The notes under the pieces: generated by a model
Told to the model about the DNA's origin: nothing
Seen by the model: the letters and a program-made list of their open reading frames with translations, nothing else
Database searches by the model: none
Source: a virus
Strand: one strand, 5' to 3'
DNA length: 44,714 nt
Virus record (IMG/VR): IMGVR_UViG_3300046779_000684
Location: 1-44,714 of that record
Position numbers and translations under genes: made by a program
In this document: piece after piece, positions 1,460-2,319 of the stretch
How positions within the stretch are numbered: the stretch's first letter is position 1
Layout: each line of letters starts with the position of its first letter

Positions 1460-1462
1460 TTA

Positions 1463-1582
1463 GCCCTAAGTACACGGGATCGAAAACAGGAGGGCATACC
1501 GTAAGATCTGCTCACTCGTCCTCTGAATCGTTAGTCAGCATAGTTATCGGGTTCTATGGTATGCGTTAAGCAAAAAACCCGG
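1463..1582 (+). ncRNA. putative structured leader RNA (possible pseudoknot)
   Basis: 10-bp helix 1494-1503/1555-1564 crossed by a 6-bp helix 1548-1553/1576-1581; also GCCCT/AGGGC (1463-1467/1491-1495). Confidence 0.4.
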
Positions 1583-1586
1583 CAAT

Positions 1587-1651
1587 AGTCAGGTGGCGTA
1601 AGGGTAAACGCACTATTACAGCAGTAGGTTCGAGTCCTGCCCTGACTACCA
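1587..1651 (+). tRNA. tRNA-like RNA 1, anticodon arm absent, encoded CCA
   Basis: Acceptor AGTCAGG/CCTGACT+A+CCA; D arm GCG-TAAGGGTAAA-CGC; T arm GTAGG-TTCGAGT-CCTGC; only 12 nt between D and T arms. Confidence 0.8.
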
Positions 1652-1699
1652 TGTTAACCCACAAAGAAAAGAAACGGGTGACAGCTCGGAAAGACGAGC
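1652..1699 (+). ncRNA. spacer RNA A: hairpin plus GAAAGA-loop hairpin
   Basis: TGTTAACCC/GGGTGACA stem followed by GCTCG-GAAAGA-CGAGC. Confidence 0.55.
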
Positions 1700-1704
1700 A
1701 ACAC

Positions 1705-1833
1705 AGTTAGGTGGCGAAATGGTAAACGCTGTTGTACATATAGGGGTGACTCAGGACAGAGACTCTGCAAAGATGTACGACAATTCATTCGTAGTCCCAG
1801 AATGAAATACAGGTTCAAGTCCTGTTCTAACTA
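1705..1833 (+). tRNA. tRNA-like RNA 2, anticodon arm replaced by a 51-nt hairpin, long variable arm
   Basis: Acceptor AGTTAGG/TCTAACT+A; D arm GCG-AAATGGTAAA-CGC; GTTGTACAT/ATGTACGAC stem (1731-1781); variable arm TTCATTC/GAATGAA; T arm ACAGG-TTCAAGT-CCTGT. Confidence 0.8.
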
Positions 1834-1834
1834 C

Positions 1835-1903
1835 AAAGTAGAGAGAACCGTGAGTTTGCGGATGGAAACAACCATAAAACGAGCATACGTCATACTCTAC
1901 TTT
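1835..1903 (+). ncRNA. spacer RNA B: long hairpin closed by a perfect 9-bp stem
   Basis: AAAGTAGAG (1835-1843)/CTCTACTTT (1895-1903) encloses ATGG-AAACAA-CCAT and fills the gap between two tRNA-like elements. Confidence 0.55.
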
Positions 1904-1907
1904 ATTT

Positions 1908-1994
1908 AGTCAGGTGGCGGAATGGTAGACGCCCTGTTTCTAGACGATGGCCGAAAGCAAGATTTCGGTACAGGTTCGAATCCTGTCCTGACTA
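1908..1994 (+). tRNA. tRNA-like RNA 3, class II (Leu-like), degenerate anticodon arm (TAG or CTA)
   Basis: Acceptor AGTCAGG/CCTGACT+A; D arm TGGCGGAATGGTAGACGC; weak stem CTGTT/GATGG around TCTAGAC; variable arm CCGAAA/TTTCGG; T arm ACAGG-TTCGAAT-CCTGT. Confidence 0.8.
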
Positions 1995-2108
1995 CGAAGA
2001 GGTAACAGACCGTATATCGGCCTCAATGGATAAGAGGAAAAGCTTTTCGGAAGCAAGTCCAAATTGATGCGCAATACAGGTGACGGTGACGAACGGGGAA
2101 AGACCCGT
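1995..2108 (+). ncRNA. spacer RNA C: multi-hairpin RNA ending in a GAAAGA-loop hairpin
   Basis: ACCGT/ACGGT closing stem, inner GCTT-TTCGG-AAGC and ATTG-ATGCG-CAAT, then GGTGAC-GA-ACGGG-GAAAGA-CCCGT. Confidence 0.5.
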
Positions 2109-2112
2109 ACAT

Positions 2113-2218
2113 AACAGAGTGGCGAAAGCTATTGGTAGAGTGATGATTGATTGGAAGACATTAAGTTGACACCCACTCAATATGTAGCTTAATGCAGGTT
2201 CGAGTCCTGCCTCTGTTA
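2113..2218 (+). tRNA. tRNA-like RNA 4, acceptor and T arm intact, D and anticodon region remodelled
   Basis: Acceptor AACAGAG/CTCTGTT+A; TGGCG after the acceptor; T arm GCAGG-TTCGAGT-CCTGC; no canonical D or anticodon stems. Confidence 0.7.
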
Positions 2219-2289
2219 CAAAGGGCTGCCAACACAGTCCCAGTTCGCAAGGAACTAAAAAAAACTTATCTGTATATATTACTCATAAT

Positions 2290-2319
2290 AAAAGAGCAAA
2301 TGTTGGTTTGCTCTTTTTT
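2290..2319 (+). terminator. intrinsic terminator closing the RNA array
   Basis: AAAAGAGCAAA-TGTTGG-TTTGCTCTTTT plus T tract. Confidence 0.75.

Follow-up and report, generated by a model that had tools for sequence, protein, structure and literature searches.

The function of the small tRNA-like stable RNAs of phages T4 and T5 has, to our knowledge, gone without explanation for decades. In T4, rnaC and rnaD are processed by RNase P along with the tRNAs. They are 139 and 119 nt long, are annotated as the small stable RNAs 'species 1' and 'species 2' (AF158101), and lie at the end of the tRNA cluster, on the tRNA strand; rnaC ends in a canonical T arm, CCGGG-TTCGAAT-CCCGG. T5 RNA1 (144 nt) and RNA2 (125 nt) are listed in GenBank AY543070 as misc_RNA, 'tRNA-like stable RNA with unknown functions', and RNA3 as 'putative tRNA-like RNA'. 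RNA1 combines a T arm and a D loop of the Leu type (GGAATTGGTAGAC) with a large insert; RNA2 has a T arm, GCAGG-TTCGAAT-CCTGT, and an acceptor-like helix. T5 RNA1 and RNA2 and T4 rnaC and rnaD are the closest described relatives of the array reported here. RNA1 and RNA2 resemble it in being oversized tRNA-shaped RNAs among phage tRNA genes, with other 'stable RNAs' in between. The T5 RNAs differ by their E. coli host, and an invariant frame with swappable inserts across many phages is not described for them in the literature searched. The T4 RNAs differ in having neither a Leu-type D arm nor an AGTCAGG acceptor, and are present in one copy each, not as an array of variants.

The array lies in the window, i.e. 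the whole stretch of 44,714 nucleotides of viral DNA that was analysed; it belongs to an uncultured freshwater (lake) phage of ∼110 kb, whose host, judging from weak hints, is probably a member of the Bacteroidota. Positions 1460-2322 form a single, ORF-free unit on the plus strand, composed of a leader, four tRNA-Leu-like elements (E1 to E4), three spacers and a terminator. The four elements reported in the initial annotation are all present where it had placed them: E1 at 1587-1648 (62 nt, or up to 1651 with the encoded CCA), E2 at 1705-1833 (129 nt), E3 at 1908-1994 (87 nt) and E4 at 2113-2218 (106 nt). Its description of their common features was accurate as well. Each element has A1-U72, a discriminator A, the sequence TGGCG right after the acceptor strand, and an acceptor stem paired at 7 of 7 positions (AGTCAGG/CCTGACT in both E1 and E3, AGTTAGG/TCTAACT in E2, AACAGAG/CTCTGTT in E4). 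All T arms consist of a 5-bp stem and a TTCRAGT/TTCGAAT loop. A feature scanner run on both strands of the 44.7-kb window returned exactly four matches, E1 to E4, and the same scanner returned none on 40 shuffles. A sigma-70 promoter scan of the unit found none; the host may use other promoters.

As had been proposed, the middles of the elements differ. E1 is made of an acceptor, a D arm, a 12-nt linker and a T arm, and has neither anticodon arm nor variable arm. E2 is expanded by two inserted helical arms: at the anticodon-arm position, a stem of 9 bp whose 33-nt top is itself structured and ends in an apical loop of 14 nt, and an 8-bp side hairpin at the variable-arm position, with a fold z-score of −4.1 for the insert. 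E3 is the most tRNA-like of the four and has a class II tRNA-Leu topology, but its anticodon-like arm is weakly paired: the 5-bp stem includes three G-U pairs and closes a UCUAGAC loop, with UAG at 34-36 and C33, and in the RNAfold prediction a tetraloop hairpin of 4 bp is favoured instead. E4 combines a divergent acceptor, a remodelled D region whose stem is not closed, and a 69-nt insert, and has no 5-bp/7-nt anticodon arm. Overall, insert sizes in E1-E4 range from 12 to 79 nt. The E2 apical loop is complementary to 9 nt of the standard frame 3′ half, but this was a one-off, as no enrichment was seen in 118 inserts.

The initial annotation had predicted that tRNA callers would perform poorly here, and indeed ARAGORN calls one element of the four, E3, as a tRNA-Leu with anticodon TAG; in intron mode, it proposes E4 as a tRNA-Ile with a 24-nt intron. 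The Rfam tRNA model gives 41 bits to E3 and 39.6 bits to E1, skipping the anticodon arm in both, and the unit yields nothing besides tRNA in Rfam, whether at gathering or at E up to 10. The term 'anticodon-defective' is appropriate for E1, E2 and E4, none of which combines a 5-bp stem, a 7-nt loop, U33 and a Leu anticodon, but not clearly so for E3, which has a 7-nt loop with UAG and is a tRNA for both ARAGORN and Rfam. E3 may still decode, and could be nothing more than a functional tRNA; of the leucine codons of the phage, 14% are CUA.

The tRNA-Leu frame was found in more than 120 IMG/VR contigs, with inserts that fall into 148 unrelated clusters among 202 elements. To score membership we used R1, a covariance model built from 24 elements, all of other contigs, to which true T4 and T5 tRNAs match with at most 38 bits. 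E3 (79.8 bits), E1 (61.1 bits) and E2 (49.9 bits) score above ordinary tRNAs, and are therefore members of the family. E4 reaches 31 bits only, within the ordinary-tRNA range; on sequence grounds it is assigned to the family through its insert, which is 91-99% identical in six other contigs (L119, L157-L160, L175) and is housed there in a standard AGTCAGG frame. T5 RNA2 also scores in the ordinary-tRNA range (30.4 bits) and RNA1 gives no match, which places both outside the AGTCAGG family by sequence; T4 rnaC scores 20.9 bits and rnaD does not match. With such low or absent scores, the resemblance of the T5 and T4 RNAs to the frame is one of architecture and not of sequence homology.

Candidates were also chosen by D arm and T arm alone. 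Among those of non-tRNA size, 120 out of 145 have 7/7 acceptor pairs, and the fully paired acceptors of the D/T-selected candidates comprise 23 different stems. In most relatives the AGTCAGG acceptor is nearly invariant, and so is the frame at the nucleotide level. The 3′-half positions are 86-100% conserved in the family though they lie outside the search pattern, the least conserved of them being A73 (86%, with a G in ∼10% of the elements). Compared with shuffles, the inserts have more structure on average (mean z −0.77, p ∼ 1e-11). ARAGORN leaves 134 of the 171 family elements uncalled and assigns scattered anticodons to the remainder, Leu accounting for 5 of these 37 calls, which is not above chance. 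E3 apart, the middles of the family cannot decode. Rfam found tRNAs and one GOLLD RNA in 15 array loci, and nothing else. A blastn search of 50,697 phage records, with either the whole unit or just E3 as query, returned T-arm matches to ordinary tRNAs only, and a full-text literature search retrieved no paper describing the frame RNAs. A 2026 preprint on bacterial tRNA mimics deals with other RNAs. We conclude that phage tRNA-Leu frame RNAs are apparently a large, undescribed family. The locus had been put forward as a new phage ncRNA system: the kind is not wholly new, since the T5 and T4 RNAs precede it, but the frame family itself is undescribed in the literature found.

Homologues were compared for each element. 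That of E1 (L180:6575-6636) matches it exactly in D arm, linker and T loop, and has five acceptor pairs exchanged with compensation; the remaining 50 nt are identical, bar one G-U to A-U change. An exact-word search of IMG/VR with the E2 insert gave no match. One E2 homologue was found, by metagenome scan (L181:4454-4585): it differs by 7 compensated pairs, 4 in the acceptor, 2 in the insert and 1 in the T stem, and has the same apical loop. Comparison of E4 with its six homologues gives 7 compensated pairs, among them 5 of the acceptor and 1 of an insert helix. The E3 insert is identical over 37 of 37 nt in six other phage contigs (L172-L177). These phages carry canonical tRNA-Leu genes as well, and in L175 a canonical tRNA-Leu(UAG), with the loop CUUAGAA to be compared with the UCUAGAC of E3, stands beside its own E3-type copy. 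The initial annotation regarded the elements as maintained tRNA mimics, not decaying pseudogenes, and we agree: E1, E2 and E4 have homologues almost unchanged inside, in which 4 to 5 acceptor pairs are swapped and fully compensated, so that instead of decaying the acceptor stems stay fully paired. Behind the orthologous gene, other frame RNAs are found, not ordinary tRNAs alone. Array content turns over fast between close relatives. The retention of 7/7 pairing in 23 stems, taken with the compensated changes in inserts and spacers, argues for selection on RNA structure.

The sequences between the elements were expected to fold, each into its own structure. Three of them outdo every one of 200 shuffles, with z-scores of −5.1 for spacer 1, −6.0 for spacer 2 and −4.7 for the tail, but the expectation failed for the leader, at z −0.7, and for spacer 3, at z −1.2. 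The leader (1460-1586, 127 nt) opens the unit directly 3′ of the stop codon of a RyR-domain gene. It is 97% identical in L072 and 77-82% identical in L016, L018 and L180, with a 45-nt block invariant, and in each case the frame RNA that comes next has another insert or acceptor. Spacer 1 (1650-1704) has two hairpins and recurs as a whole module in L142, L121, L159, L016 and L018. Its second hairpin, TGAC-R-[5 bp]-GAAAGA-[5 bp]-AAYAY (TGAC at 1679-1682, stem and loop at 1684-1699), is present in at least 18 loci, often immediately 5′ of a frame element; 3 of its 5 pairs covary, and the observed score was reached by 0 of 500 shuffles. Spacer 2 (1834-1907, 74 nt) is a long-hairpin RNA module with homologues in L117 and L133, and 4 compensated pairs among the three sequences. 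Spacer 3 (1995-2112) closes with the GAAAGA-loop hairpin once more (its stem-loop at 2093-2108, GGTGAC twice upstream); in this second copy the stem covaries with that of spacer 1 (ACGGG/CCCGT for GCTCG/CGAGC). Positions 2025-2112 are 89% identical to L016:5188-5274, which is also directly 5′ of a frame RNA. The tail (2219-2323) contains two small hairpins and the closing terminator that had been announced, a stem-loop at 2290-2317 followed by a T run in the terminator scan, and is 71% identical to the stretch 3′ of the last frame RNA in L004. Leader and spacers are thus conserved, mobile modules that recur beside different frame RNAs. The GAAAGA-loop hairpin was also considered as a host repeat, for instance a CRISPR repeat, and this was rejected: it is absent from the 401 genomes searched, which are from the phylum of a Sediminibacterium MAG.

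Four metatranscriptome studies contain short contigs with matches to the leader, to E1, to the spacers, to E3 over its full length and to the insert of E4. These contigs cover positions 1462-1611 (X15, X17), 1812-1915, 1907-1996 (E3, with 0-1 mismatch) and 2119-2209 (E4, X15); RNA libraries can contain DNA, so that these matches mean presence and are not proof of transcription, and as they consist of assembled contigs, cleavage sites, strand and abundance are not readable from them. None of the contigs of the four libraries covers 1300-1460 or 2243-2500, which we do not count as a sign of a discrete transcript.

The flanks of the elements were compared with those of tRNA genes. The DNA 3′ of the elements reads CCA (E1), CAA (E2), CGA (E3) and CAA (E4), and position −1 is C in E2 and T in the other three. 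In the family, the 3′ trailer is CAA for 75 of 162 frame RNAs, versus 180 of 357 ordinary tRNAs at the same loci; two Sediminibacterium tRNA genes have ACTA and ACAA. T at −1 is common in frame RNAs and in ordinary tRNAs alike, and in a flank test (T at −1; C plus non-CA trailer) the distributions of the family and of ordinary tRNAs agree. The gene neighbourhood was examined at 131 array loci. No accompanying protein family was present beyond 13 of the 131 loci, the most frequent neighbours being terminase, DUF932, an RNase H-like protein and a packaging protein, and this fits a dependence on host enzymes. No defence or counter-defence gene was linked to the arrays, nor was a recombinase or homing endonuclease consistently near them, at these 131 loci.

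Any interpretation has to account for the observed anatomy, compensated conservation, family membership, modular exchange and RNA-library matches. What RNase P, RNase Z and the CCA-adding enzyme read in their tRNA substrates is the half made up of acceptor and T arm. The reading we prefer, and to which we give somewhat better than an even chance, is that frame RNAs serve both as processing punctuation and as a stabilising scaffold in which cargo replaces the anticodon region. We infer the cleavage sites, the stability of the RNAs and any cargo activity as follows. A single transcript would contain four RNAs built on a common tRNA-Leu frame (7-bp acceptor, Leu-type D arm, T arm and usually A73), in which the anticodon and variable region is absent in E1, replaced by cargo in E2 and E4, and reduced to a weak tRNA-Leu(UAG)-like arm in E3. 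Host RNase P would cleave at the 5′ end of every frame, and the 3′ end would be finished by the host tRNA machinery, i.e. endo- or exonucleases and the CCA-adding enzyme. This would produce four tRNA-shaped, nuclease-resistant RNAs displaying their cargo on the anticodon limb, while the same cuts would free the structured RNAs lying in between, leader and spacers 1-3, several of which would end in the conserved 3′ GAAAGA-loop hairpin. Interiors (D arm, insert and T arm), acceptor helices and spacers are reshuffled across phages, probably through crossovers within the constant sequences of the D and T arms. Punctuation and scaffold were the first two roles suggested in the initial annotation, and they receive indirect support from the spacers, which are conserved structured modules, and from the tRNA-gene-like flanks.

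Besides the lack of a promoter in the scan, the unremarkable folds of the leader and spacer 3 and the chance that E3 is a working tRNA, two further points go against this reading. An acceptor/T minihelix suffices for a scaffold, which leaves the kept Leu-type D arm, A73 and the near-invariant AGTCAGG unexplained, and no target of the cargo was found above chance in the sequences searched. Within the 110-kb genome of the phage itself, complementarity that could mark an antisense target extends over 10-14 nt at most, as far as it does for shuffled modules. In the rRNA operon of the Sediminibacterium MAG, a candidate host, no module paired convincingly above shuffles. In three candidate-host MAGs the sole significant matches were frame sequences, on G001:C10, G002:C169 and G003:C91; G001:C10 holds the 112-kb, phage-sized contig of L167.

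The unexplained D arm and A73 would find a reason if the RNAs were non-decoding leucine acceptors, active as LeuRS-charged RNAs or by sequestering LeuRS, EF-Tu or leucine, with inserts that only tune them. E. coli LeuRS needs A73, A15-U48, G18G19 and the D/T elbow, and dispenses with the anticodon and the long variable arm (PMC9976931); these are the parts that the frame keeps. A truncated tRNA-Leu without both arms is still charged, in the account given by PMC9976931 citing Larkin et al. 2002. E1 amounts to such a molecule, and its 12-nt linker is preserved in L180. A73 is present in E1-E4, T48 in E2-E4, and A14, A15 and the D-loop GG in E1-E3. Leu being one of the few anticodon-independent tRNA identities, the choice of the frame would be explained. 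However, A73 is conserved at only 86% in the family, and G73, an antideterminant for LeuRS (PMC9976931), is found in ∼10% of the elements; moreover, the D arm is disrupted or expanded in E4 and several relatives, and position 48 of E1 is A, not U. The hypervariable yet individually conserved inserts are left without explanation, and the Leu type may be mere inheritance from an ancestral phage tRNA-Leu. We regard leucine acceptance as an unlikely primary role. A role as decoys or resistant substitutes facing tRNA-attacking defences (anticodon nucleases, acceptor-end toxins), E3 being a bait or a nuclease-resistant tRNA-Leu(UAG), is in our opinion quite unlikely. Phage T5 tRNAs with altered anticodon loops reportedly escape anticodon nucleases. 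The E3 loop is like that of the L175 tRNA-Leu(UAG), E3-type RNAs exist besides the normal decoder, very different phages share the E3 insert letter for letter, as expected for the matching of one conserved host factor, and the quick turnover of arrays between close relatives would suit an arms race. Yet most inserts are unlike anticodon arms, stoichiometric baits are weak against catalytic nucleases, and the array loci are devoid of linked defence or counter-defence genes.

Modular exchange could also be the whole story, if the constant tRNA ends were mainly recombination handles of selfish or neutral cassettes, with inserts functionless as RNA and a conservation due to recent horizontal spread. 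Differences between homologues do cluster in the acceptor helix, with interiors about identical, as expected from an exchange of modules and not from gradual divergence; the frame is nearly invariant in nucleotides, and the same leader or spacer is found 5′ of different elements in different phages. Compensated changes in inserts and spacers and 7/7 pairing over 23 stems are at odds with this proposal, as are the lack of a recombinase or homing endonuclease consistently nearby and the modules matched by RNA-library contigs, and we find it distinctly improbable. Hardly credible, finally, is the notion that E3 alone is functional, as an ordinary tRNA-Leu(UAG), next to decaying duplicates or intron-bearing tRNA genes (E1, E2 and E4). 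It can invoke the ARAGORN and Rfam tRNA calls, the share of CUA codons and the intron-mode tRNA-Ile call of E4. But the compensated, conserved homologues of E1, E2 and E4 are the opposite of decay, removal of the inserts would leave no anticodon arm, E3 has flaws of its own (C33 and three G-U pairs in the stem), and Leu calls are no commoner than chance among family elements; this pseudogene reading is largely refuted by the homologue comparisons. As to tRNAs bearing a group I intron, inserts of 12-79 nt are far too short for an element that needs ∼200 nt or more, and Rfam gives no intron or ribozyme match.

Among known RNAs, a near neighbour is the bacterial or phage class II tRNA-Leu (RF00005), with which the frame shares the acceptor, the D arm UGGCGGAAU(U)GGUAGACGC, the T arm, A73 and U48. 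The 3-bp Leu-type D stem of tRNA-Leu is found in E1-E3 and is remodelled in E4; the D arm of the frame recurs in true tRNA-Leu genes of related phages, and E3 has the five-arm topology of tRNA-Leu. In contrast to tRNA-Leu, the 62, 129 and 106 nt of E1, E2 and E4 are outside tRNA sizes, and these elements have no 7-nt anticodon loop. tmRNA is similar in having an acceptor/T domain and a large insert in place of the anticodon arm, and in being aminoacylated without an anticodon, but it has the alanine identity G3-U70, pseudoknots and a tag reading frame. A tmRNA identity of E1-E4 was discarded, as ARAGORN reports no tmRNA and position 3-70 is T-A or C-G, not G3-U70. In mitochondrial tRNA punctuation too, tRNA shapes in a polycistronic transcript mark the cuts that release their neighbours; there, however, the tRNAs decode, and the RNAs released are mRNAs and rRNAs.

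The same logic is found in RNA engineering, with the tRNA scaffolds and polycistronic tRNA-guide RNA arrays reportedly described by Ponchon and Dardel 2007 and Xie et al. 2015. There, a cargo takes the place of the anticodon arm and gains stability, and tRNA units let RNase P and RNase Z free the neighbouring RNAs. Those constructs are man-made, whereas the phage arrangement is natural, its processing being the inferred part. If the frame works as proposed, phages would have reached both the tRNA-scaffold and the tRNA-punctuation strategies, the inserts would represent a large untapped set of stable structured RNAs, and some of them would probably be aimed at host machinery or defences. One can go further and imagine a modular cassette system, in which a host-processed, CCA-tailed and perhaps leucylated frame would carry swappable cargos that bind and disarm host factors; cargos, acceptor frames and spacer RNAs would be traded between unrelated phages through crossovers in the constant parts of the D and T arms. 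We hold this extension to be rather unlikely; if true, phages would possess at the RNA level an equivalent of integron cassettes, and the engineered tRNA scaffold would have a natural version. Standard annotation overlooks frame RNAs or labels them as tRNAs with arbitrary anticodons, which distorts the counts of phage tRNA genes. The family offers hundreds of natural variants of a constant frame with individually conserved, swappable inserts, and so enables a comparative and experimental study of tRNA-like stable RNAs of the kind first seen in T4 and T5.

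A custom scanner was run over both strands of the window; a hit had to combine a fully paired acceptor helix (7/7), TGGCG following the acceptor strand, and a T stem of 5 bp with a TTYRANY loop. It returned exactly the four tRNA-Leu-like elements claimed in the initial annotation, E1 (1587-1648), E2 (1705-1833), E3 (1908-1994) and E4 (2113-2218), and none in 40 shuffles; the whole 110-kb genome holds no further fully canonical copy. That tRNAscan-SE or ARAGORN would miss such elements proved right for E1, E2 and E4 with ARAGORN, and wrong for E3, its sole call, as Leu-TAG. The Rfam tRNA model gave 41 bits for E3 and 39.6 bits for E1, skipping the anticodon arm in both. 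Computed folds agree with the earlier description of four differing middles, and an intrinsic terminator (2290-2317, terminator scan) does close the array unit. The view that every gap folds was upheld for spacer 1 (1650-1704), spacer 2 (1834-1907) and the tail (2219-2323), all far better than shuffles (z of −5.1, −6.0 and −4.7), and had to be dropped for the leader (1460-1586) and spacer 3 (1995-2112), which were not better. An ORF search found no plausible ORF between the upstream neighbour, a 131-aa RyR-domain gene (1064-1459, Pfam RyR), and the downstream one, a 71-aa ORF starting at 2326. Only E1 is followed by an encoded CCA (1649-1651); this is probably not a conserved feature, since the E1 homologue in contig L180 carries CAA. 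Elsewhere in the window, the ARAGORN intron mode suggests a tRNA-Arg interrupted by a 91-nt intron (31305-31473, minus strand) inside the gene of a 969-aa virion structural protein, very likely a false positive.

Elements with such a tRNA-Leu-type acceptor stem, D arm and T arm, here called frame RNAs, enclose an exchangeable middle, the insert. A 25-nt pattern of the 5′ frame was found on at least 120 IMG/VR contigs, often in several copies per locus and beside ordinary tRNA genes. Among the matches listed, element lengths span ∼62 to 172 nt, tRNA sizes included, ARAGORN makes no call for 134 of 171 elements with an AGYYRRR acceptor and gives the other 37 scattered anticodons (Leu in 5), and the inserts of 202 non-tRNA elements form 148 clusters, 110 of them singletons. 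The 3′ half of the frame reads T-ACAGG-TTCGAAT-CCTGT-CCTGACT-A and is 86-100% conserved at most positions among these listed matches, independently of selection by the pattern, from which it is absent. When selection was by D arm and T arm only, 120 of the 145 non-tRNA-sized candidates listed had all 7 acceptor pairs, with 23 different stems. Acceptor pairing is therefore selected, not merely inherited. A covariance model of the frame (R1), trained on 24 elements from other contigs, scored E3 at 79.8, E1 at 61.1, E2 at 49.9 and E4 at 31 bits; true T4 and T5 tRNAs reached 38 bits at most.

A 45-48-nt structured D-loop insertion, alongside or replacing the middle insert, is present in L172, L173, L176, L177 (E3-type) and L005:4494-4614, and cargo is therefore accepted at sites besides the anticodon region. 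A related array locus includes a GOLLD RNA (L140:1293-1710, Rfam RF02032, 262 bits) among its tRNAs and frame RNAs. One family of 163-169-nt inserts (L016:5275-5437, L018:1442-1604, and the minus strands of L043 and L132) has invariant blocks, e.g. GGAGTGGC-AAA-CGCTGGTGGTAC and AGAGAAAACCACA, and covarying helices capped by GCAA-type loops; it has no Rfam match at gathering score and looks like an elaborate structured RNA. Its L016 member is directly preceded by a homologue of spacer 3.

The elements had been held to be maintained, not decaying, and their homologues bear this out. Behind the same leader, the L180 homologue of E1 matches it exactly in D arm, 12-nt linker and T loop, while its acceptor (ACCAGAG/CTCTGGT) differs by five compensated pairs. 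In metagenome contig L181, the E2 homologue shares the 9-bp stem, 14-nt apical loop and side hairpin, with acceptor AGGAGAA/TTCTCCT, T stem ATAGG/CCTAT and two compensated pairs within the inner helix of the insert, i.e. seven compensated pairs overall. The E4 insert is kept at 91-99% identity in six contigs, each in the standard AGTCAGG frame, and one of its helices is changed from GAGTG/CACTC to GATTG/CAATC. The 37-nt middle of E3 is identical in six contigs, 4 of which carry a ∼45-nt D-loop insertion; they come from phages of ∼48-310 kb having 20 or more normal tRNAs, canonical tRNA-Leu(UAG) and tRNA-Leu(UAA) included. We conclude that the array is a real, maintained element. Because the differences between homologues cluster in the acceptor helix while interiors barely differ, the interior (D arm, insert and T arm) looks to have been transferred between acceptor frames rather than to have diverged slowly.

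The apical loop of E2 (GACTCAGGACAGAG, 1745-1758), identical in L181, contains TCAGGACAG, complementary to 9 nt (CUGUCCUGA) that bridge the 3′ strands of T stem and acceptor in the standard frame, E3 being one example; this does not extend to E2's own frame. As no enrichment of such complementarity to the frame 3′ half was found in 118 other inserts, it may have arisen by chance or be left over from recombination.

Like the elements, the spacers are conserved modules. Spacer 1 has complete copies in five loci, spacer 2 has homologues in L117 and L133 that show four compensated pairs, and most of spacer 3 recurs in L016. The leader is copied in L072 (97%), L180 (82%), L016 and L018 (77-78%), each time ahead of a different frame RNA. 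The 3′ hairpin of spacer 1, TGAC-R-[5 bp]-GAAAGA-[5 bp]-AAYAY, lies 4-5 nt upstream of a frame RNA in 24 distinct instances, among them those ahead of both E2 and E4 in the window; covariation is seen at 3 of its 5 pairs, pairing holds in 92% of cells, and none of 500 shuffles scores as high. The RyR-domain gene has relatives in 35 IMG/VR loci (L002-L036), and frame RNAs or tRNAs directly adjoin it in L002-L005, L007, L012, L016 and L018. In close relatives with an orthologous RyR gene (up to 98% protein identity), DNA similarity stops near position 1488, beyond which only frame ends and the GAAAGA hairpin match. Ordinary tRNAs at these loci would have spoken for decay; other frame RNAs were found there, with normal tRNA-Met and tRNA-Tyr in addition in L003.

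A fifth frame-like element lies outside the window, at the far end of the genome record (about 109980-110083; L183:1480-1583), with an AGTCAGG...CCTGACT-A acceptor, a class-I-type D arm (TAGCTCAAATGGTAAGAGC), a poor T arm and an R1 score of 31.5 bits. Another GAAAGA-loop hairpin follows 3′ of it (110116-110136; L183:1617-1637), 18 nt from the contig end, and an RNA-library contig (X15) links the hairpin module to the 5′ part of this element.

Judged by sequence, frame RNAs have the flanks of real tRNA genes from the same phages: the 3′ trailer is C followed by AA, TA or AC, CAA being found in 46% of frame RNAs and 50% of these phages' ordinary tRNAs, and both groups often have T at position −1. 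It is the acceptor/T half of a tRNA that RNase P, RNase Z and the CCA-adding enzyme read. From this and the tRNA-like flanks, it is reasonable to infer that a single transcript would span the array and be cut at each frame, which would give four tRNA-shaped RNAs displaying cargo, plus free spacer RNAs, of which those with the GAAAGA hairpin at their 3′ end would be protected there. The arrays have no protein family in common (the most frequent occurs in at most 13 of 131 loci), which fits reliance on host enzymes. A lack of processed transcripts would argue against such a system; in four metatranscriptome studies there are short contigs that match the leader, E1, the spacers, the E4 insert and, with 0-1 mismatch, the whole of E3; these matches indicate presence only, since such libraries can contain DNA and the contigs show no RNA ends. 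In run X17, a relative joins the window's leader to a different insert. The array is very probably expressed. An X15 contig starts at about window position 1457-1462. In L072 (6735-6762), 11 nt ahead of the leader copy, stands TATATTTG, which matches the Bacteroidota −7 promoter box (TAnnTTTG); TGCTTTAAAATAA, immediately before the leader start, is common to L072 and the window, which is without the −7 box itself.

Alternatively, the frame RNAs may be charged with leucine. What they retain matches the set of leucine identity features in E. coli (A73, A15-U48, G18G19 and the elbow), where anticodon and variable arm are dispensable and a truncated tRNA-Leu is still charged (PMC9976931), a minimal substrate to which E1 comes close. 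However, A73 is the least conserved position of the 3′ half (86%), and the D arms are remodelled in E4 and several relatives. It is also conceivable that some, E3 in particular, serve as decoys or resistant tRNAs; the E3 loop is similar to the one in canonical tRNA-Leu(UAG). A search for cargo targets in the phage genome, the rRNA operon of a candidate host and candidate-host MAGs found none.

The virus record is 110,154 bp long and estimated as 93% complete (IMG/VR), the window being its first 44.7 kb, and many freshwater metagenome runs contain near-identical DNA. Some hints point weakly to a Bacteroidota host. In species-representative genomes, the frame pattern matched only 10 contigs, all from MAGs, 4 of them binned as Chitinophagaceae or Sediminibacterium; one is phage-sized (112 kb). 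ACAA/ACTA ends are common to the tRNA genes of one such MAG and the phage elements.

A literature search found no paper on an RNA family of constant frame and exchangeable insert. In the T5 record, 'tRNA-like stable RNA with unknown functions' is the annotation given to RNA1 (144 nt) and RNA2 (125 nt), and RNA3 and five further stable RNAs are also listed between tRNA genes. RNA1 of T5 combines a Leu-type D loop and a T arm with a large insert; the T-arm sequence of RNA2 is identical to that of many frame RNAs, and T4 rnaC has a T arm at its end. According to R1, none of the three belongs to the frame family by sequence, so that the kinship is of kind, not of sequence. The array continues the tradition of stable RNAs known from T4 and T5, with a family that is far larger and modular.
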